This document shows positions 8,967 to 17,116 of a stretch of DNA of 36,992 nt, piece by piece. Source of the stretch: an uncultured Candidatus Saccharibacteria bacterium (GTDB lineage Bacteria; Patescibacteriota; Minisyncoccia; Phycocordibacterales; CAYRGE01). Location: contig CAYRGE010000001.1 of assembly GCA_964423985.1 (NCBI GenBank), positions 1-36,992 on the forward strand. The letters are read 5' to 3'. The position numbers and the translations under genes were made by a program. The notes beneath the pieces are model-generated. The model was not told the DNA's origin and ran no database searches. It saw only the letters and a list, made by a program, of their open reading frames with translations. Position 1 is the stretch's first letter; the number at the start of each line of letters is the position of its first letter.

Positions 8967-9049
8967 AGTTGTTGTTTATTATAAATTTTTAAAATTAATA
9001 ATTCTAGTAAGAAATTTTATTTTATATCTTAAATAACTCCGTGTATAGA

Positions 9050-9928
9050 TTATGTAGAATTTTCATTTCGTAAGTTATAAATTTTTCCATTAGATTTTTT
9101 TATAATTCCTTTAATTTCCAACATAGAAATTAAAGGAATTATTTTTATGGAAGGCAGTTTCGTGATGTTTATTAATTCATCTATATGTAGTGGCTCTGAC
9201 AGGGCGGATAATATATGTTTTTCATCTGTGGTTAGATTGTGTTTATATTCATCAATTTCTTTTATTGTGTCAATGCCTAATGTTTCAAGTATGTCCTTGC
9301 TTTCAGTGATTGGTGTTGCTCCATTTCGGATTAAATGGTTTACTCCAATGCTCCCTGATTGAAATATTGGTCCTGGAACAGCAAGAATCTCACGATTATA
9401 ATCAAGCCCCAAGCGTGCTGTAATAAGTGTTCCTGATTTTTCTTTTGCTTCAACAATAAGTATTGCGTGTGAAATTCCTGCCATAATTCTATTGCGTTTT
9501 GGAAAACTCCACACTGTTGCGCGAAAATCTGGCTCATACTCTGAAATGAGTGCTCCTCCAGTATCTAATATTTTTTTTGCTAGGGTTAGGTTTGTTGCAG
9601 GATAGATGACACTATCGTTAAGTCCCGACCCGGGGACTGCAATTGTTTTTAAGTTTGCAGAAATTGCTGCACGGTGTGCTTCTGTATCAATACCAAATGC
9701 GAGCCCTGATACAATAACAATATTATAGCCAGAAAGTCCACTAATAAGCTGAGCACAGGCATCCTTTGCATAATTACTTGCTTTTCGTGAACCAACAACA
9801 CACAAATAATGCGGATTGTTTTTTGGCAGAGTGCCGCGAACAAATAAATAATTCGGAGGCCCAGGGGTTTCTTTTAAAAGGCTTCCAAATGGTAGTTCTT
9901 TTATTTTATATTTACGAAGATCACTCAT
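9050..9928 (-). CDS. dprA: DNA processing protein DprA/Smf
   Basis: 292-aa ORF with an ATG start. It has the DprA Rossmann-like core (VVSGLAFGIDTEAHRAA, GTLITARLGLDYNREILAVPG) and a C-terminal winged-helix-like tail. Confidence 0.9.
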   Translation of the reverse strand: MSDLRKYKIKELPFGSLLKETPGPPNYLFVRGTLPKNNPHYLCVVGSRKASNYAKDACAQLISGLSGYNIVIVSGLAFGIDTEAHRAAISANLKTIAVPGSGLNDSVIYPATNLTLAKKILDTGGALISEYEPDFRATVWSFPKRNRIMAGISHAILIVEAKEKSGTLITARLGLDYNREILAVPGPIFQSGSIGVNHLIRNGATPITESKDILETLGIDTIKEIDEYKHNLTTDEKHILSALSEPLHIDELINITKLPSIKIIPLISMLEIKGIIKKSNGKIYNLRNENST

Positions 9929-9979
9929 ATTGTGTATTTTATTGATATGACACAGACTGTATTATATACTATAAATATA

Positions 9980-10010
9980 GTTGTATTGAAATTAAAAGAT
10001 ATAATACAAC
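9980..10010. promoter_or_regulatory. Inverted repeat overlapping a TATAAT box; candidate operator/promoter of the HTH-led cassette
   Basis: gttgtatt (9980-9987) and aatacaac (10003-10010) are perfect 8-bp inverted arms 15 nt apart. TATAAT at 10000-10005 sits across the right arm. No good -35 hexamer is visible. Confidence 0.3.
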
Positions 10011-10096
10011 CTTCATTCAATAGCTTAACCAAACACTTTTAATAAAACAAGAATAAAATAAGGTTGAATTATGAAAAGAATAAATTTGGAGAGAAA

Positions 10097-10249
10097 ATGA
10101 AAAAGATACACTTAGAAAAGGAAATGTCGCAAGACGATGTTTGCCGAGCGTTATACTTGGACAGGTCGCACATCAGCAATGTTGAAAATGGAAAACAAAA
10201 TCTTACAATTAGTGCAATGGAAGAGATCGCTAAGCACTTGATACAATAG
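10097..10249 (+). CDS. XRE-family helix-turn-helix protein (short)
   Basis: ATG at 10097 is preceded by GGAG (10088-10091); the track start at 10064 is TTG. MSQDDVCRALYLDRSHISNVENGKQNLTISAMEEIAKHL matches the HTH_3/XRE pattern (..SQ..lA..lg.srs.is..E.Gk.n.....l..ia..l). Confidence 0.75.
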   Translation: MKKIHLEKEMSQDDVCRALYLDRSHISNVENGKQNLTISAMEEIAKHLIQ

Positions 10250-10281
10250 TCTATCAATTATTAGAATAACTAAAAAATATT

Positions 10282-10446
10282 ATGAACAATAAATCAAGCA
10301 ATCAAAAACAAAAAAAGATCATAAATACTGAAGCTAGGGGAAATGACAAAATTTATGGATACATGGCAAATGTTGTGAAAAAAGCAAAAAAGGACTTAGA
10401 AAAAATCGAAGCGGAAATAGAGGGACTTGAAAAAATTAACAATTAA
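10282..10446 (+). CDS. 54-aa Lys/Glu-rich predicted helical protein (below the ORF-track cutoff)
   Basis: Hand translation gives MNNKSSNQKQKKIINTEARGNDKIYGYMANVVKKAKKDLEKIEAEIEGLEKINN*. It starts 33 nt after the HTH stop, and its TAA (10444-10446) ends 4 nt before the ATPase ATG. The tight packing suggests it is co-transcribed. Confidence 0.45.
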   Translation: MNNKSSNQKQKKIINTEARGNDKIYGYMANVVKKAKKDLEKIEAEIEGLEKINN

Positions 10447-10450
10447 AACT

Positions 10451-12136
10451 ATGGAAAATTTTGAACTTAAAAAACAAATAGAACAAGCGAGCGATCCAGA
10501 GGTTTTGAAAACTACTCTTTTTGCTTTGCTTGATAAAATAGATTTGTTGGAACAACGTCTCTCAATTGTTGATAAAAGCGGAGATGGTCAAGAGAATGTT
10601 TCTGATATTATTGCCAACAAAAGAGACAGGTTGGAAGAAATTCGTCATGGGTTGACTGAATTAAACGAAAGAATGGAAAAGCCGTATCTTGTTTCCGCAG
10701 AGCTTGAGGCAGTAAAAGAGGTTTTAGATATTTTATCTGAAGCGGGAGAATGTAATTCTGTAATTCTTGAGGGAGAGCCTGGAACAGGTAAAACACAGTG
10801 GGCATATTCTGAAGTAGGACAAGAATTGCAAGACGGAAAAGATGTTTCTCTTGTGCATGTTCGCGTTAAAGACACAATGCGTGCTCAGGATTTATTATAT
10901 AGTATTGATGATGTTCGTCGCTTGAGTGACGCACAAGCACAAGCACAGGTTCCCGACCAAATCCGTCAGGAAGCTGGCGAATGGAAACAAAAAATAATAG
11001 CTGGCGACATAAACCCAAACGAAGACAAAGAATATGGGATTTTTAAAGCAAAAATGGAAGCAATTGTTGAGTTAGGAGAAACAGCGAAAGATTTGAATTA
11101 TTTAAATTATGTTGATTTGGGTCCACTTGGTGAAGCAATTCATCAATCAGGAAAGGGACAGAGAGTATATTTAGTGATTGATGAAATTGAAAAAGGGCGT
11201 GAAGAACTGATGACAGGTATTTTAGACGAGATTGAAAACCTAACTTTCACAATTGGAGAAACTGGAACCGTGGTAAAAGGAGACAAAAAGAACATGCGAA
11301 TAGTTATTACTACAAATACAGAGGATTCTGATAAGATTCCTCCTTCATTTCGCAGGCGAAGTTTATACCACTACATAGATTATCCGAACCGAGCGGATAT
11401 GAAAAAGATTGTAGAGTTGAATTTTCCAGATATTCAAAGAGAGTTACTTGATTATACTATTTCTATTTTCTATCAATACCAAGAAAATAATGAAGTAGAG
11501 AAAAAGCCTTCTACCCCAGAGTTTTTGGCGTGGATTAGAGTTTTGAGCAAAGAATTTGACGGATCAATTCCCGACAATATTCCACATAAAGAAATCTTAT
11601 TGAAGTATCAAGAAGATATGGAATTGGATATTGGAAGAATAAATGTAGAGGCACATGAGGAAATGGAACAATCAGAAGAAGTACTTCCACATTTTGTGCA
11701 AAGAGCATTTCGTGGTGATCAAATTTATCACATTACCGACAATATAAATAATCACAATAATCAAGATAAATATTCTGCATTTTATGCAAAGCTTCAAAAT
11801 AAGGGCGTAAATTTTATGACTCCAAAATTTGGTGAGGAATATGATAATCGCTGTAGTAAGCATGTGCAGAAAGTACAAAGAAGTTTTCAGATTGTTGTGC
11901 CAGGAGTTGAACATCTTGGAAATGGTTATTACGTAATTCCTGATGATAAATTATCTTTACTTGATGAAGTTATTGATACAGAAACAAAAGTTTTATCAGC
12001 AGGACAAAATTTCTCATCCATAAAAGAAAAAAGTGGCGATGTGACGATTGGTCAAATTGAGATTGACGGATACCAACGAGAAGCGTTTATGGGGGATGAC
12101 GGTAGAGTTGTGGTAAATAAACCCTACAATCGATAA
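10451..12136 (+). CDS. MoxR/CoxD-like (AAA_5-type) AAA+ ATPase with N-terminal coiled-coil and unassigned C-terminal domain
   Basis: Walker A GEPGTGKT (nt 10772-10795), Walker B VYLVIDEIE (DE at 11180-11185), sensor-1 ITTN, and the arginine cluster PPSFRRRSLYHYIDYP typical of MoxR/AAA_5 proteins. The start is ATG 10451 or the in-frame TTG at 10427. About 170 C-terminal residues have no recognisable motif. Confidence 0.8.
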   Translation: MENFELKKQIEQASDPEVLKTTLFALLDKIDLLEQRLSIVDKSGDGQENVSDIIANKRDRLEEIRHGLTELNERMEKPYLVSAELEAVKEVLDILSEAGECNSVILEGEPGTGKTQWAYSEVGQELQDGKDVSLVHVRVKDTMRAQDLLYSIDDVRRLSDAQAQAQVPDQIRQEAGEWKQKIIAGDINPNEDKEYGIFKAKMEAIVELGETAKDLNYLNYVDLGPLGEAIHQSGKGQRVYLVIDEIEKGREELMTGILDEIENLTFTIGETGTVVKGDKKNMRIVITTNTEDSDKIPPSFRRRSLYHYIDYPNRADMKKIVELNFPDIQRELLDYTISIFYQYQENNEVEKKPSTPEFLAWIRVLSKEFDGSIPDNIPHKEILLKYQEDMELDIGRINVEAHEEMEQSEEVLPHFVQRAFRGDQIYHITDNINNHNNQDKYSAFYAKLQNKGVNFMTPKFGEEYDNRCSKHVQKVQRSFQIVVPGVEHLGNGYYVIPDDKLSLLDEVIDTETKVLSAGQNFSSIKEKSGDVTIGQIEIDGYQREAFMGDDGRVVVNKPYNR

Positions 12137-12141
12137 TAATT

Positions 12142-13920
12142 ATGAGCGAAAAATTTTTCAAAAGAGAATTTATTCCCCCAGAAGAAAGAGATTTGCGCAA
12201 ATTCAAAGGCTCTAATCTCAAAGAAGTTATTGAGTTTTTAGAAGGTGCAGATACAGAAAATATAAAGGAATATACTGGTGACAAAGAATGGAAGGAGTAT
12301 TTAGACAGGGAGGGTCAAAGTATTTTTGATGGTTTTTTGACTTTACTTCGTGAAAAAGGTGTGCGAGTTTCCACTCCAGAATGGTTGCAATTTCTTCAAG
12401 TCATAGAAAAGAAAACAACTGCAGAAGATTTGAAAAAGATCGTTGGAACAAACGAACTTTTAAATAAAGTTCGTTTGTTCGCGCAAACCACTTTAGTAAA
12501 GGACAAATCAGAAGAACTATCATTTCATGAAGCATTTGATGAATACTTTGAATTAGCGGCAAAAATATACAGTCGCGAATTGCAGGATGAAGAAGCAGAA
12601 AAAAAAGAAACAGAAGTGCAAGACAGTCGCGACAGTGGTATAGAGCCTGAAATAAAAGAACAACTTGGAATAGATGAGGTTGATGAAAATTTAGATCTAC
12701 CGGAAGGTGGAGAGCATGATGATGACGAAAAAAAGCATGGTGGAAAAGAGGATCAACACAACGACATTTTGAAGAAAGAAGATTTGGCAAAAAAGGGTGG
12801 CGGAAACAAAAAAGATGGAGAAACTGGTGAAGGAGATAAAGGTCAGCCAAGTGAGGGAAAAGGTAAAAAAGGAGAAGCTGGTCATGGTGAGGGAGACAAA
12901 GGAAAGGAGGGGGAAGGAAAAGGCGATAAGGGTGAAGTTGGAGCAGGTAAAGGAAATAAAGGCGACCCTTCTGGAATGGGTAAAGGTAGTAAAAAGGGAG
13001 CCGAAAATAACGAGTCAGGAAATCAGTCAGTACCACCAGAATCTCCCGAATCTGAACAACAAAAAGTTAGTCAAAAAGGATTTTTAGTCGGCGGCGGAAA
13101 AGGTAAATCTATTTTTGCAGAACGAGTCAATCAGCCGCATATTACTCACAGAGGCGAAAGATTAACGAAACAAGATATAAAAGACAGAAAGAAAAAAGTT
13201 GGAAAAGTTGACCGACGAATGAGATATGAAGTGAGACCAGATAAAGCAAGTATGCGAGAAGTTATTAGAAATCTTCGCAGGATTATTATGGATGTTTCTG
13301 AGGTAAAAAGTAGCGATGTTGATCTGAAAAGAACTGTTAAAAATTTTGCTCGTCGTGATTTTCGCTTTGACTATGAACGAGAAAGAGAGAAACAACCAGA
13401 AGTTGTTTTGCTTATAGATGTTGGCGGTTCTGTTAACAAGTGGAGTCCGCTGATGAAAGAGGTTGTTGAAGAAATGGCGAAAGGACTTAGTAAATTAGAA
13501 GTGTATCTTTTTCATAATAATTTATATGGATATGTTTGGAAACCAGACCCAAAAGACCTGCTTGCTTCAAGTTATGCAAAACCAAATTCTTTGATTGATT
13601 TAAAAAAAGTTGTTAAAAGAAGAAAAAAAGTAATTGTTTACGGAGATGCAGATATGTCATATTCTGAATTTGAAGGAGATTGCTGGCTACCAAGCGGGAA
13701 TGATAAATTAGTAGAAAAATTTGGAATGGGCGGAGAAGAAAGTCTAAAATTTATAAAAAAGAAAGCAGACTCGGTTGTATGGATAAATCCAATATTTGCA
13801 AAAGAGTGGGATAAGCAAGATGATTCTAGAGCAATTGAAGCTATCAATGATATTATACCTATGCACGATTTAACTGTCGGTGGAGTTGAAGACGCAATAA
13901 AGGAATTAATGAAAAAGTAA
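12142..13920 (+). CDS. CoxE-type von Willebrand factor A (VWA) protein with long disordered linker
   Basis: The ATG lies 5 nt after the ATPase stop. The N-terminal FLTLLREKGVRVSTPEWLQFLQVI resembles the CoxE-family N-terminal helix pair. The C-terminal VDLKRTVKNF..PEVVLLIDVGGSV..VYLFHN..VIVYGDADM..VVWINP matches the VWA_CoxE layout. The MIDAS position reads DVGGS rather than DxSxS. Confidence 0.8.
   Translation: MSEKFFKREFIPPEERDLRKFKGSNLKEVIEFLEGADTENIKEYTGDKEWKEYLDREGQSIFDGFLTLLREKGVRVSTPEWLQFLQVIEKKTTAEDLKKIVGTNELLNKVRLFAQTTLVKDKSEELSFHEAFDEYFELAAKIYSRELQDEEAEKKETEVQDSRDSGIEPEIKEQLGIDEVDENLDLPEGGEHDDDEKKHGGKEDQHNDILKKEDLAKKGGGNKKDGETGEGDKGQPSEGKGKKGEAGHGEGDKGKEGEGKGDKGEVGAGKGNKGDPSGMGKGSKKGAENNESGNQSVPPESPESEQQKVSQKGFLVGGGKGKSIFAERVNQPHITHRGERLTKQDIKDRKKKVGKVDRRMRYEVRPDKASMREVIRNLRRIIMDVSEVKSSDVDLKRTVKNFARRDFRFDYEREREKQPEVVLLIDVGGSVNKWSPLMKEVVEEMAKGLSKLEVYLFHNNLYGYVWKPDPKDLLASSYAKPNSLIDLKKVVKRRKKVIVYGDADMSYSEFEGDCWLPSGNDKLVEKFGMGGEESLKFIKKKADSVVWINPIFAKEWDKQDDSRAIEAINDIIPMHDLTVGGVEDAIKELMKK
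12826..13005 (+). repeat. Three imperfect 60-nt (20-aa) in-frame tandem repeats inside the VWA gene
   Basis: GEGDKGQPSEGKGKKGEAGH / GEGDKGKEGEGKGDKGEVGA / GKGNKGDPSGMGKGSKKGAE. At DNA level ggtgaaggagataaagg (12826) recurs as ggtgagggagacaaagg (12886) and ggtaaaggaaataaagg (12946). Confidence 0.8.
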
Positions 13921-13921
13921 A

Positions 13922-14191
13922 GGCTACGATGTTGTTTTTAAAAATGTAGATTGGAAGAAAAAATTATCACAACAGACTTTCGAGATATCTGAAGACTCAG
14001 TGATTTTTGGTTTCTCTCTAGGTGCTGTTCTTTCATGGTTAGTGGCTCAAGATTATAAATGTAAACAAATAATACTTGCTTCTATGACACCTCAATACTC
14101 TTGAGAAGATGGAGAAACAAAAAAAGCTCTGATTGATTTACTAGGTAATCCTTCCCCAAAAAGAACTGGTTTTAAAAAAGTCTTAAGATAA
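13922..14191 (+). pseudogene. Truncated alpha/beta-hydrolase gene remnant
   Basis: The frame has no start codon and begins immediately after the VWA stop. It reads GYDVVFKNVDW...SVIFGFSLGAVLSWLVAQ with a nucleophile elbow G-F-S-L-G (14009-14023). There is an in-frame TGA at 14102-14104 and TAA at 14189-14191. The same frame stays open again to TAG at 14303-14305. Confidence 0.6.
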
Positions 14192-14362
14192 CAAATTAAA
14201 AGAGTACAGAATTTATTAAAAGGAATACCTAGAAAAACCTTAACTCGGTGTACACCTTACGAAGTTTTTGATAAACTAATGAATAAGCGCTCGGTTAGAG
14301 ATTAGAAACTAAGCAATAAGAGTATCTTACAATATAAAATTAGTAAATAATAAATAAATAGT

Positions 14363-15637
14363 ATGCTAGATATTAAATTTATTCAAGAAAATAAAGATAT
14401 TGTGCAGGCGGGAGCAAAAAAGAAACACATTGATTTTAATGTTGATGCACTTATTGTTGCTGATAATAAAAGAAAAGAGATGATTAATGAAGTTGAGTCT
14501 ATGCGTGCTGAACAAAACATAGCATCTGAAAAAATAAGCCAAACTCAAGACCAAGACATACGCCAAAAACTTATAAATGAAGTTCGTGGTTTTAAGGAAA
14601 TACTTCAATCAAAAGAAGAAGAGTTAAAAATCATAATGCAGGAATGGCAAAATCTGATGATTAGGGTTCCGAATATTCCAGATATGTCTGTGCCAGAAGG
14701 AGCTTCAGATCAAGACAATAAAGAAATAAGTAAATGGGGTGAGATATCTGAGTTCCAAACTGGTTTTAAAAACCATATTGAATTAATGCAAGACCTTGAT
14801 ATGGTTGATTTTGAGAGGGGTGTCAAGGTTGCTGGATTTAGGGGGTATTTTTTGAAGAATGAAGGAGTTACATTGTCTGTTGCTCTTTGGCGGTATGGTA
14901 TGGATAAACTTATTCAGAAAGGATATCAACCAATGATGGTTCCATCTTTGTTGAACAAAAACTCGTTTTTAGGAACTGGTTATTTGCCTCAAGGTGAGGA
15001 AGATTTATATAAAACTCAAGACAATAACTATCTTGCCGGTACATCTGAGGTTGGAATAATGGGATACTATATGGGTGATACCATAAACATAAATAGCTTA
15101 CCTAAAAAAATAGTTGGATTATCTCCTTGTTTTAGGCGCGAGGCGGGTAGTCATGGGAGAGACACGAAAGGGCTAATGCGTGTACACGAGTTTTTTAAAC
15201 TAGAACAGGTTATTTTCTGTGAAGCAAACCACGACGAGAGTGTTAAGCAACATGAAGAGCTTCTTTGTAATGCAGAAGAAATTATGAAAGGACTTGAAAT
15301 TCCGTATCGCGTAGTTGTAAATTGTGGAGGAGATCTTGGATTAGGGCAGGTGAAAAAATATGATATTGAAGCGTGGGTGCCGTCTGAAGACAAATATAGA
15401 GAAACACACTCCGCCTCATATTTTCATGATTTTCAAACACGCAGATTAAACATAAAATATCGTGACCAAGAAGGAATCCTCAGGTTTGTACATTCATTAA
15501 ACAACACAGCAGTAGCAACACCACGCCTTTTAATCTCATTGCTTGAAAATCACCAAAATGCAGATGGAACAATAAAAATTCCAGAAGCACTACAGCCATA
15601 TATGGGGAATAAAAATATTATTTCTTTTAAAAATTAA
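14363..15637 (+). CDS. serS: Seryl-tRNA synthetase
   Basis: 424-aa ORF with an ATG start. It has an N-terminal coiled-coil arm, class II motif 2 (CFRREAGSHGRDTKGLMRVHEF) and motif 3 (NNTAVATPRLLISLLENHQ). Confidence 0.95.
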   Translation: MLDIKFIQENKDIVQAGAKKKHIDFNVDALIVADNKRKEMINEVESMRAEQNIASEKISQTQDQDIRQKLINEVRGFKEILQSKEEELKIIMQEWQNLMIRVPNIPDMSVPEGASDQDNKEISKWGEISEFQTGFKNHIELMQDLDMVDFERGVKVAGFRGYFLKNEGVTLSVALWRYGMDKLIQKGYQPMMVPSLLNKNSFLGTGYLPQGEEDLYKTQDNNYLAGTSEVGIMGYYMGDTININSLPKKIVGLSPCFRREAGSHGRDTKGLMRVHEFFKLEQVIFCEANHDESVKQHEELLCNAEEIMKGLEIPYRVVVNCGGDLGLGQVKKYDIEAWVPSEDKYRETHSASYFHDFQTRRLNIKYRDQEGILRFVHSLNNTAVATPRLLISLLENHQNADGTIKIPEALQPYMGNKNIISFKN

Positions 15638-15757
15638 ACCTTGTTTTATTTTGTTTGGTGGTAATTTAAAACCAATAGCAGAAAAAGCAGTGCGCAGAAT
15701 ATTTGAAAGAGAGTGCGTAAAAAATAGATTGGTATATAAAAGCAAAACAACAATAAA

Positions 15758-16627
15758 ATGAAACGAAAGCGTAATTTTCTAGAAACACCAAAGCGTATTC
15801 GTCGCAGGAGACAAAGGCGTATTATAAAAACAGTAGCATCCGTGTTGATTTTTTTGTTTACAACACTTGGCTTGTTTTTTATAGTCAATAATGAACGATT
15901 GTTGATTTCAAGTATAGAAATAACCAACAACGATGTTGTCAAAACAGAACATTTAAGGGATATTGTAGAGGAAGAGATTAGTGGAAAATATTTTTTTCTT
16001 TTTGCAAGAAAAAACGCACTTTTTTTACCACGGAAATCTATTGAAAAAAAAATACTTAATAAACACAAAAGAGTAGAAAGTATACACATTAATCTTGTTG
16101 GGTTAAATACATTAAATCTAAGTATTACTGAACGGGTCCCGTATGCATTGTGGTGTGGGGAAAAACAATCAAAAGAAATAGAAAATTTCACTGTAACTGA
16201 TTCTTGTTTTTTTATTGATCGTACAGGTTTTGTTTTTGACAAAGCCCCTGGTTTTTCAAGATATGTATATTTTACGATATATAGCCCGCTTGATAAGGCA
16301 ATAAAAAACAACACAAACTGTCCAAAAGGAAGTTTTATAAGTTCAGAGGTTCCTTTTAAGTATCTTGTAAAATTTAGAGAAATACTTGCTTCAAGAAAAT
16401 TAAAAACAACACATTTAGTAATTCTACCGAACAAAGATTATAAGCTGATTCTTGTTAGTGGAGGGGAGTTGATTTTTAGCGGGAAACAGAATCCAAATAC
16501 AGTGTTGGATGATTTACTTTTTGCAATAGATAGAAAAAAAGTAGAATCTCCAGATATGTTTAAAAATCTCAAATACATAGATGCTAGGTTTATATCAACA
16601 CAAAGAGTGTTTTTCAAATTTCACTAA
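15758..16627 (+). CDS. ftsQ: Cell division protein FtsQ/DivIB-like (POTRA domain)
   Basis: 289 aa. It has a basic N-terminus, a single TM helix (VASVLIFLFTTLGLFFIV), then a POTRA-like segment ISSIEITNNDVVKTEHLRDIV...INLVGLNTLNLSITERVPYALW. Confidence 0.7.
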   Translation: MKRKRNFLETPKRIRRRRQRRIIKTVASVLIFLFTTLGLFFIVNNERLLISSIEITNNDVVKTEHLRDIVEEEISGKYFFLFARKNALFLPRKSIEKKILNKHKRVESIHINLVGLNTLNLSITERVPYALWCGEKQSKEIENFTVTDSCFFIDRTGFVFDKAPGFSRYVYFTIYSPLDKAIKNNTNCPKGSFISSEVPFKYLVKFREILASRKLKTTHLVILPNKDYKLILVSGGELIFSGKQNPNTVLDDLLFAIDRKKVESPDMFKNLKYIDARFISTQRVFFKFH

Positions 16628-16726
16628 CTCGTTCTTGCTTTGAAGTGGTATACTATATGACATAGAATTTGTAGCTAGTTTTTAAGAGATGTTTGTTTGA
16701 TAATTTAAAATATTCAACAAGGAATA

Positions 16727-17116
16727 ATGAGCACATTTAGTCTATTAAAAACATATTTTGCATGGCACTACTCTGTTGCCTTGCTTGGAATTTGGAAAAT
16801 ATTTATTGATATAGAGTGGTTTTTATACAATTTTTTTTCAACAAAACTCCTTTTGCAGACACTATTTTCTAAATGGAGAAGACTTGGAGAAAAAAGAACC
16901 AAGAAAGTTGACATAATGGATTTTTTCACTGTTTTGATTGTAAACACACTTATGCGAATAATAGGTGTGTTTGTGCGACTTTTTCTAATAATTACTAGTA
17001 TTGTTTTTATGGTTGTGTGTGGCGTAATTAGTATTGTTGTGTTTTTCGTATGGCTTGTTTTGCCATTGTTAATTATCAGCTCTCTTGTCGTTGGGCTAAA
17101 ATTATTGTTTTTATAA
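16727..17116 (+). CDS. Small polytopic membrane protein, unknown function
   Basis: 129-aa ORF with an ATG start. It has one hydrophobic segment near the N-terminus and a long hydrophobic C-terminal half. It ends 7 nt before the Clp-like gene. Confidence 0.55.
   Translation: MSTFSLLKTYFAWHYSVALLGIWKIFIDIEWFLYNFFSTKLLLQTLFSKWRRLGEKRTKKVDIMDFFTVLIVNTLMRIIGVFVRLFLIITSIVFMVVCGVISIVVFFVWLVLPLLIISSLVVGLKLLFL

Follow-up and report, generated by a model that had tools for sequence, protein, structure and literature searches.

An accessory gene trio of a micro-protein, a MoxR-class ATPase and a VWA partner inserted between dprA and serS in a Saccharibacteria genome, with a possible role in genetic conflict

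Few AAA+ machines are as poorly understood as the MoxR-VWA pairs, of which the few with a known function each serve one neighbouring enzyme. Here we describe a small cassette with a MoxR-class ATPase and a VWA protein in a stretch of 36,992 nucleotides (nt) of contig CAYRGE010000001.1, from an uncultured Candidatus Saccharibacteria bacterium (assembly GCA_964423985.1). We call this whole 37-kb stretch the window. The cassette fills the 4,434-bp interval between dprA and serS, and its layout was read from the six-frame listing of open reading frames (ORFs) and from the raw sequence:

9050–9928, minus strand: dprA, the left flank, taken from the ORF listing
10097–10249, plus strand: helix-turn-helix (HTH) gene with its ATG at 10097; an alternative TTG at 10064 is likewise open
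10282–10446, plus strand: micro-protein ORF of 54 amino acids (aa), with its TAA at 10444–10446
10451–12136, plus strand: AAA+ ATPase, with its ATG 4 nt past the micro-protein stop
12142–13920, plus strand: VWA partner, after a gap of 5 nt
14363–15637, plus strand: serS, the right flank

The four ORFs and their 4-nt and 5-nt gaps had been called in a first-pass annotation of this DNA, and we recover them in both the ORF listing and the raw sequence. The cassette ORFs are real genes and not chance ORFs, since a collection of 5.8 billion proteins contains 239 homologues of the ATPase and 132 of the VWA protein, the micro-protein recurs in every genomic context that we compared, and the ratio of non-synonymous to synonymous substitution rates (dN/dS) is 0.03–0.20. 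For the ATPase, about 110 cluster representatives are 44–100% identical, and the next step down is at about 30%. No Rfam match and no tRNA gene was found in or near the cassette.

We compared 15 contexts: the window and the contigs L001, L003, L004, L006, L007, L009, L010, L012, L014, L150, L153, L154, L155 and L156. The conserved unit consists of three genes that encode a helical micro-protein of 46–67 aa, the AAA+ ATPase and the VWA partner, and it is present in 15/15 contexts. In all of them, an ORF of 46–67 codons lies directly 5' of the ATPase gene and the partner gene lies directly 3' of it. This order is kept even where the ATPase is only about 30% identical, namely in L006 (a gammaproteobacterial metagenome-assembled genome, MAG), L007, L012 (WWE3) and L014. 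The partner genes 3' of the ATPase include homologues that were listed in the VWA search (e.g. P0149, P0220, P0214 and P0228). Furthermore, the micro-proteins align with each other: a short polar N-terminus, basic in many of them, precedes a [VI][ILV]N motif whose Asn is invariant, and an amphipathic helix follows. The window micro-protein matches no family in Pfam, NCBIfam or PADLOC. Its conserved position and the 4-nt spacing, which is consistent with translational coupling, suggest that the micro-protein may be a stoichiometric partner of the ATPase. The HTH gene, in contrast, does not belong to the conserved unit. Of the self-contained four-gene cassette with its own XRE regulator that had been proposed, the three-gene core thus holds, whereas the regulator falls outside it. 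We refer to the three conserved genes as the trio.

To compare the insertion site with related backbones, contigs L147 and L149 were found by searching with the DprA protein and taking the contigs of its matches; the closest SerS relative among metagenome contigs is 56% identical and lies on a contig of 2.7 kb. L147 is the best available relative of the host backbone, with a DprA that is 68% identical, and it is collinear with the window over topA, dprA, serS, two unknown genes, a Clp ATPase, Dus and a clamp-loader gene at 65–72% nucleotide identity. The dprA-serS spacer measures 72 bp in L147, where the two neighbours are divergent, versus 4434 bp in the window, and L149 carries the insert. 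As the syntenic L147 lacks the cassette, the interval is a real insertion. The trio occupies a different chromosomal site in each of the 15 contexts, and we can thus confirm the earlier proposal of an accessory, inserted module. The distribution is patchy, with at least three GTDB species representatives, L010 among them, carrying a copy above 50% identity. Compositional distinctness of the cassette was dropped as an argument, as its GC content (0.34–0.40) is not distinct from that of the window (33–40%). Together with the named homologues, the composition assigns the window to the Patescibacteria.

The ATPase matches Pfam AAA_5 with 31 bits (cut-off 22) in two stretches. Its AlphaFold2 model, based on 55 homologues, has a mean predicted local distance difference test score (pLDDT) of 82 and a predicted TM-score (pTM) of 0.72, and is divided as follows:

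10451–10741, plus strand: residues 1–97, long coiled-coil-like helices (16–43, 48–76 and 83–97; pLDDT 46–86)
10742–11635, plus strand: residues 98–395, MoxR-class AAA+ core and lid (pLDDT mostly 85–94)
11684–12136, plus strand: residues 412–561 and stop, compact orphan alpha+beta C-domain (pLDDT 80–93)

The ATPase motifs are intact, with the Walker A motif GEPGTGKT, Walker B at D244-E245, sensor-1 at N289 and R302-R303 (arginine finger before strand 5); the residues G108, G111, T112, K114, T115, D244, E245, N289, R302 and R303 are invariant in 55 sequences. The model predicts about 100 residues between strand 2 (132–138) and strand 3 (238–244), which form an enlarged helix-2 insert with invariant positions Y150, D153, R157, D160, P168, W178, F198 and Y220, as well as a pre-sensor-1 hairpin at 265–276. 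Comparing the model with Foldseek to the Protein Data Bank (PDB), we found as best match NorQ (9qh9_C, E = 4e-11, TM-score 0.71 normalised to NorQ, 15% identity), next CbbQ (6l1q_A, E = 1.5e-10), and then McrB, dynein and Rea1 modules. The hallmarks of a MoxR-class AAA+ protein of the helix-2-insert clade are thus found in the sequence, in the predicted structure and in the adjacent VWA gene, and we assign the ATPase to this clade. At the sequence level, a profile search against PDB sequences yielded only Clp/Hsp104 proteins, none better than E = 5e-5, and NorQ, CbbQ and RavA were absent from its matches. There is no NCBIfam equivalog for the ATPase, and its nearest annotated relatives in PLSDB are named 'MoxR family ATPase'.

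The C-domain is an orphan domain. An exhaustive HMMER search over 1.84 billion representatives resulted in 12 matches: six ATPases of the same family, five new and mostly short proteins, and one spurious match. The latter, an RTX/cadherin adhesin, had matched through a repeat and was discarded as a relative. The C-domain also diverges faster than the core, with 50–54% amino acid identity to L009 and L003 versus 82–83% for the core. Some family members of about 495 aa align to only about 70% of the query, and no known domain was found in the C-terminal variants that were scanned. In L010 (Paceibacterota MAG STD2_77; 10001–13657), the ATPase is split into two overlapping ORFs of 144 and 431 aa and the VWA gene has no normal N-terminal part, which may be due to decay or to an assembly frameshift.

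The sole Pfam family of the VWA partner is VWA_CoxE, which it matches with 26.4 bits, exactly the gathering threshold, over 76 residues. Its AlphaFold2 model has a mean pLDDT of 62 and consists of three parts:

12142–12606, plus strand: residues 1–155, helical N-domain (helices 63–160; pLDDT about 66–81 for residues 61–140)
12607–13161, plus strand: residues 156–340, disordered linker rich in G, K and E (pLDDT below 50)
13162–13920, plus strand: residues 341–592 and stop, divergent Rossmann-like VWA domain

In the N-domain, F65, L66, S77, E80, W81 and F84 are invariant, and we observed a weak match to the N-terminal part of NCBIfam MadC (E = 0.013). The linker varies in length among homologues, whose whole proteins measure 458–663 aa. 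It carries a motif that is near-invariant in 56 sequences, H192-x-D-[ND]-E-x-V-H-G-G-K-x-D-Q-H-N-D-I-L-K-K-x-D-L-x-K-x-G-G-G (residues 192–221, nt 12715–12804), and a second near-invariant motif, G-G-G-K-G-K-S, at residues 317–323. The first motif, rich in His, Asp, Glu and Gly, might serve as a docking peptide or bind a metal. An HNH-like reading presumably does not apply, as we take the motif spacing not to fit HNH. No DNA tandem repeat was found in the linker, and the sole small repeat (12521–12543) lies outside of it. An antisense ORF of 211 codons (12401–13036, minus strand) over the linker is a by-product of purine-rich low-complexity coding and not a gene.

For the VWA domain, Foldseek detects the VWA domain of RGLG2 (E = 9.5e-4) and that of NorD in the NorQD complex (9qhf_G, E = 1.9e-3), whereas no PDB sequence matches the partner at an E of 1 or better. 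The core aspartates D426 and D502 are invariant in the 56 sequences; they are the pair at the ends of strands 1 and 4 by which the metal site of vWA domains is defined (PMC7159879). The canonical DxSxS of the metal ion-dependent adhesion site (MIDAS) is degenerate: it reads D-V-G-G-P in 53/56 sequences, whereas the window has D-V-G-G-S. The last 20 residues are again near-invariant (...GGVEDAIKELMKK, terminal ELMKK).

Upstream of the trio lie the HTH gene and a candidate control region:

9942–10010, plus strand: candidate promoter/operator with a promoter-like TTGATA-17-TATACT site
9958–9974/9992–10008: imperfect inverted repeat upstream of the HTH gene
9980–9987/10003–10010: perfect 8-bp inverted repeat GTTGTATT/AATACAAC upstream of the HTH gene
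10097–10249, plus strand: XRE/Cro-C1-type HTH protein of 50 aa that resembles the 'controller' proteins of restriction-modification systems

The promoter/operator call is tentative, as the region is AT-rich and has no conservation in L001. The HTH protein matches Pfam HTH_3 above the cut-off (33 bits versus 23, E = 5.7e-8), is small, and is encoded first in the operon, as is found for XRE regulators. In PADLOC, it matches Control_protein (E = 3.8e-12) and capH (E = 1.9e-7). It thus resembles a controller-type XRE protein and is a putative repressor. The gene is confined to the window, the conspecific contig L149 (99.2% identical) and the closest relative L001, and is thus an addition specific to this lineage. 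The window and L001 are homologous at the nucleotide level from 10084, 13 nt 5' of the HTH ATG, to exactly the VWA stop. Relative to L001, the HTH gene has a 1-nt deletion near 10231 that truncates the C-terminus. The product ends with ...AKHLIQ* after 50 aa, and the +1 frame still encodes the ancestral C-terminus ...AKALDTIVYQLLE* (10215–10275). The deletion is probably not an assembly error, since the independent conspecific contig L149 is identical.

The right flank of the insert is a remnant:

13921–14362 (442 bp), plus strand: non-coding, with stop-interrupted frames in the three-frame translation; absent from L147

The first broken ORF in frame 2 contains a GFSLGA motif that is alpha/beta-hydrolase-like; motifs of this type are typical of the nucleophile elbow of alpha/beta-hydrolases. 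For the second broken frame-2 ORF (LLKGIPRKTLTRCTPYEVFDKLM), the sole database similarity comes from a tblastn search against plasmids, in which three of the four matches are to C-terminal parts of transposases of the IS30 family, with E = 2, which is not significant. The ORF remnants have no NCBIfam match. That a decayed gene lies on this flank, as previously suggested, agrees with the broken reading frames, whereas its identity is weakly indicated.

To estimate selection, we computed dN/dS against L001, which has 82% nucleotide identity and a dS of about 1.2. In the ATPase, dN/dS is 0.11 for the N-terminal helices, 0.03 for the AAA+ core and 0.10 for the C-domain; in the partner, it is 0.10 for the N-domain, 0.20 for the linker and 0.08 for the VWA domain. 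We thus conclude that the two large genes are functional and strongly constrained. No positive selection was seen on the ATPase C-domain or the partner linker, where omega is at most 0.34. The truncated HTH gene, the pseudogenised right flank and the L010 copy, with its ATPase in two pieces and the N-terminal part of its VWA gene lost, might suggest that the cassette is a relic, an old insertion that has lost its function and is decaying. This reading is largely refuted by the selection analysis (dN/dS 0.03–0.20). Furthermore, the three core genes are intact in the window, all catalytic motifs are invariant, and the genes have kept the close spacing that would allow translational coupling. We regard a relic as scarcely credible.

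When comparing the trio to known MoxR-VWA systems, we find that neither large protein falls inside a described pair, as had been anticipated. About 300 of the 561 ATPase residues match NorQ or CbbQ, structurally and at 15% identity, the partner matches the solved NorD VWA weakly, and the NCBIfam scores are far below their cut-offs. The trio resembles NorQ/NorD and CbbQ/CbbO in that their AAA+ core is the best structural match and the VWA partner gene lies directly 3' of the ATPase gene. In addition, the partner is built in the same order as NorD and CbbO, with an N-domain, then a long flexible linker, and the VWA domain at the C-terminal end, where the last residues are conserved. However, the present ATPase adds to NorQ and CbbQ an N-terminal coiled coil, an enlarged helix-2 insert and the orphan C-domain. 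The trio also differs from both pairs by its obligatory upstream micro-protein and by a MIDAS of the form DxGxP instead of DxSxS. Moreover, it has no nitric oxide reductase (NOR) or RuBisCO neighbour and is mobile, patchy and not operon-linked to a client. Membership in the CoxD/CoxE group is borderline at best, as VWA_CoxE is matched at threshold; only 76 residues are covered, and there is no carbon monoxide dehydrogenase (CODH).

These similarities raise the question whether the trio is a classical assembly or metal-insertion chaperone of the NorQD, CbbQO or CoxDE type, with a client that is encoded elsewhere and common to many hosts, and a linker motif that handles metal or client. The NorD-like order of the partner (PMC13036017) and the structural proximity of the ATPase core to NorQ and CbbQ agree with this, as do the very strong purifying selection on the core (omega 0.03), the near-invariant H-x-D-x-E-x2-H-G-G-x2-D-Q-H-N-D in the linker, the lack of an effector domain, and the trio copies that sit amid housekeeping genes. 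However, a client is linked in 0/15 contexts: neither the 37-kb window nor the 14 other contexts link the trio to cNOR, RuBisCO or CODH, and in the window Pfam finds no CODH, NOR, RuBisCO or other obvious metalloenzyme, in line with the first-pass annotation. The trio is also absent from the collinear L147 and, among the matches listed, from nearly all GTDB representatives of the Patescibacteria. Furthermore, the MIDAS serines are lost, and metal binding by the linker motif is pure conjecture. Genomes of the candidate phyla radiation (CPR) are also poor in complex metalloenzymes, which counts against a chaperone. We thus consider this explanation rather unlikely; if true, the client would reveal an unknown cofactor-dependent process in CPR bacteria.

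Outside the CPR family, the nearest sequence relatives of the AAA+ core are compact ATPases of about 300 aa from Myxococcota and Promethearchaeota. They are 27–34% identical over residues ~80–395 and lack the N- and C-terminal extensions of the present ATPase. The scores of the trio on NCBIfam MadB (NF047784, 43.3 bits) and MadC (NF047783, 14.3 bits) lie below the cut-offs of 475 and 600, respectively. We found no description of MadB/MadC proteins in the literature. The ATPases in L040 (9914–12058, Corallococcus) and L070 (9884–10738, Promethearchaeota/Asgard) themselves reach 105–110 bits on MadB, where the cut-off is 475, and in L040 the ATPase is followed by a VWA-type partner of 401 aa that matches NCBIfam SAV_2336_NTERM.

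MoxR-VWA modules have also been described in ternary conflict systems (Kaur, Burroughs, Iyer and Aravind 2020, PMC7159879). The trio is similar to these in combining a MoxR-vWA pair with a third protein and in often lying among conflict genes. The partner has a weak match to NCBIfam SAV_2336_NTERM (E = 8.6e-8), with 31.5 bits against a cut-off of 200, a model that might or might not relate to these systems. However, the third component of the published systems is VMAP, iSTAND, FtsH or a beta-propeller protein, whereas that of the trio is a helical peptide of 46–67 aa. In those systems, effector domains or effector-associated domains (EADs) lie C-terminal to the vWA domain, whereas the vWA domain of the trio is itself C-terminal and has no fusion. 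Their hosts are multicellular or colonial bacteria, whereas those of the trio are ultra-small CPR bacteria. By its domain order, the partner goes with the classical chaperones NorD and CbbO and not with these conflict systems, whose third components and effector domains are all absent. McrBC and Rea1/Midasin belong to the same AAA+ clade, and McrB and Rea1 are among the fold matches. In both, a partner or domain is inserted into the ring pore (PMC13036017). As the trio has no McrC-type nuclease and its ATPase is single-module and not six-module, the likeness is a functional analogy only.

Taken together, the trio is an undescribed variant of the known machine of a MoxR-class ATPase and a VWA adaptor. 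Its new features are the obligatory micro-protein, the coiled-coil N-terminus, the orphan C-domain, the degenerate MIDAS, the linker motifs and a mobile, client-less lifestyle largely in CPR. We found no description of the trio family in the literature, and the one search that combined MoxR with CPR/Patescibacteria terms listed none containing 'MoxR'. As the trio is client-less and mobile with an obligatory micro-protein, its target must be encoded in the cassette, universal or foreign. CPR genomes measure roughly 1 Mb. That a 3.7-kb accessory module persists in genomes of this size under very strong purifying selection suggests that it is probably important to its hosts.

We propose that the trio serves genetic conflict, i.e. 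defence against phages or other mobile genetic elements (MGEs) or competition between such elements, and not the maturation of a resident enzyme; we put the probability of this reading at roughly 45%. It is favoured because no client accompanies the trio, which often has mobile-element and defence genes as neighbours. Its absence from the collinear L147, its rarity among species representatives and the controller-type XRE protein acquired in the window and in L001 point the same way. Mobile, defence or toxin genes occur near the trio in 8/14 other contexts, an association that is suggestive as a raw count, not set against a CPR background rate. The neighbours in these 14 contexts are:

L001: HNH type II restriction enzyme, HinfI-family gene, methylase, PDC-S06/LmuB-like ATPase, KilA-N and MazE
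L006: two serine recombinases, an IS481 transposase and DUF4238-Pers
L007: an rve_3 fragment
L009: an IS3 transposase immediately upstream
L150: three tyrosine integrases, Fic and an excisionase-like HTH
L154: a serine recombinase and a Toprim primase
L155: two type II methylases, a YgjP-like gene and HATPase_c_4/AlbA_2 genes
L156: Zeta toxin
L003 and L014: a tRNA gene directly upstream
L004, L153, L010 and L012: nothing mobile

The same neighbourhoods could point to a function that benefits the mobile element itself, such as assembly or remodelling of an element structure, its maintenance, or the countering of host immune systems. Integrases, an excisionase-like HTH, a primase and recombinases adjoin the cassette in L150, L154 and L006, an IS3 transposase is adjacent in L009, and the repressor resembles a phage or controller type. 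A precedent for virus-encoded MoxR-vWA assembly is an archaeal virus pair used in tail development, for which PMC7159879 is here the citing and not the original source. However, the trio has no regular neighbour among structural, replication or transfer genes, the neighbouring recombinases come from different families, and the trio persists in the window and in L004 without an intact element. There is also no close homologue in IMG/VR, INPHARED or PLSDB and no informative PHROG match. A function for the element itself is thus distinctly unlikely. The searches for a phage or plasmid origin in IMG/VR, INPHARED and PLSDB gave generic MoxR/Clp ATPases with about 25–31% identity and PHROGs were uninformative, and this origin was rejected.

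L003 shows a different neighbourhood, with genes similar to pilins of the type IV secretion system (T4SS) upstream of the cassette and an unrelated Bat-type MoxR system (AAA_3 MoxR, DUF58 and two VWA proteins; 11520–16987) just downstream on the opposite strand. VWA domains often mediate adhesion. The pilin-like genes and the Bat-type MoxR/DUF58/VWA operon next to the cassette in L003, together with the adjacency to the competence gene dprA in the window, might thus indicate that the trio remodels a surface or pilus complex that CPR bacteria use in their life as episymbionts. We regard this as very unlikely, as pilin linkage is found in 1/15 contexts, the dprA adjacency is not conserved, and relatives occur in a gammaproteobacterial MAG. 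In addition, no signal peptide or transmembrane segment was seen in the four translated proteins when read by eye.

In the proposed reading, an accessory and horizontally mobile trio, placed here behind a putative controller-type XRE repressor, entered between dprA and serS, probably within a larger element whose transposase later decayed. For its mechanism we draw on the cryo-EM structure of NorQD, in which a finger of the VWA domain reaches into the pore of NorQ and touches the helix-2 inserts, the C-terminus takes part, the N-domain binds the lid, and the VWA domain turns upon ATP hydrolysis, by which the linker is stretched (PMC13036017). The same study proposes that AAA+/VWA pairs in general work in this way (PMC13036017). 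We infer the same mechanics because the corresponding parts are present in the trio: an intact ATPase, a conserved helix-2 insert, a tripartite partner and a near-invariant C-terminus. By this analogy, the ATPase would form a hexameric ring. The VWA domain of the partner would dock on the ring, with an extension in the pore contacting the helix-2 inserts and the C-terminus contacting the ring. ATP hydrolysis would then twist the VWA domain relative to the N-domain and stretch the linker of about 185 residues, and a polypeptide held by the N-domain, the linker motifs and the VWA aspartates might thereby be remodelled. The micro-protein could act as a stoichiometric adaptor, as a regulator or as a loaded substrate, and would probably bind the N-terminal coiled coil of the ATPase. 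Finally, the fast-evolving orphan C-domain may provide specificity.

In a more specific form, which we consider doubtful, the trio would be an unrecognised effector-less immune or competition system on genomic islands of CPR bacteria and few other lineages. The MoxR ring would here be the executioner or the switch, remodelling an invader protein or the micro-protein that the VWA adaptor has captured. If a role in defence or competition is true, the trio would be a new mechanistic class, in which a remodelling motor operates without a classical effector, and one of few such systems native to CPR bacteria. In any case, it offers a compact, testable system for a poorly understood class of motors.

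Several observations speak against a role in conflict. In PADLOC-DB 2.0, the ATPase matches no defence model, with TRIP13 (E = 0.0088) matching on the P-loop only, and the VWA protein has no match at all. No effector domain is recognisable in the trio, be it a nuclease, a protease, TIR, a pore or another, and the partner has the domain order of the chaperone pairs and not that of the published conflict systems. Ring formation and finger-in-pore docking are taken over from NorQD by analogy only. The contexts of the window, L004 and L153 are plainly housekeeping, the tRNA gene is the sole mark of mobility in L003 and L014, and L010 and L012 have none. Around the insert in the window, we found no terminal inverted or direct repeats and no target-site duplication, with one AT-rich 11-mer only, and no close relatives were found in IMG/VR, INPHARED or PLSDB. 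Lastly, the high protein identity between the window and L001 reflects constraint on an old divergence (dS ~1.2) and not recent transfer; recent horizontal transfer, for which the high identity had been considered a sign, was thus dropped at an omega of 0.03.

The remainder of the window is housekeeping, as had been stated before and as Pfam supports for the other 20 large ORFs. The set includes a class II tRNA synthetase, DnaE, RNase HII, TopA, DprA, SerS, a Clp ATPase, Dus, a DnaX/HolB clamp-loader subunit, RNase J, transporters, MurJ and LepA. The cassette lies at the exact switch of strands and at a local minimum of the cumulative GC skew (window ~9000–10000); genes to its left are mostly on the minus strand, and those to its right are on the plus strand up to about 24 kb. 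Two ORFs past serS (289 aa and 129 aa; 15758–17116) have no Pfam family. The order and size of this ORF pair are kept in L147 (7298–8646), upstream of the Clp-type ATPase.

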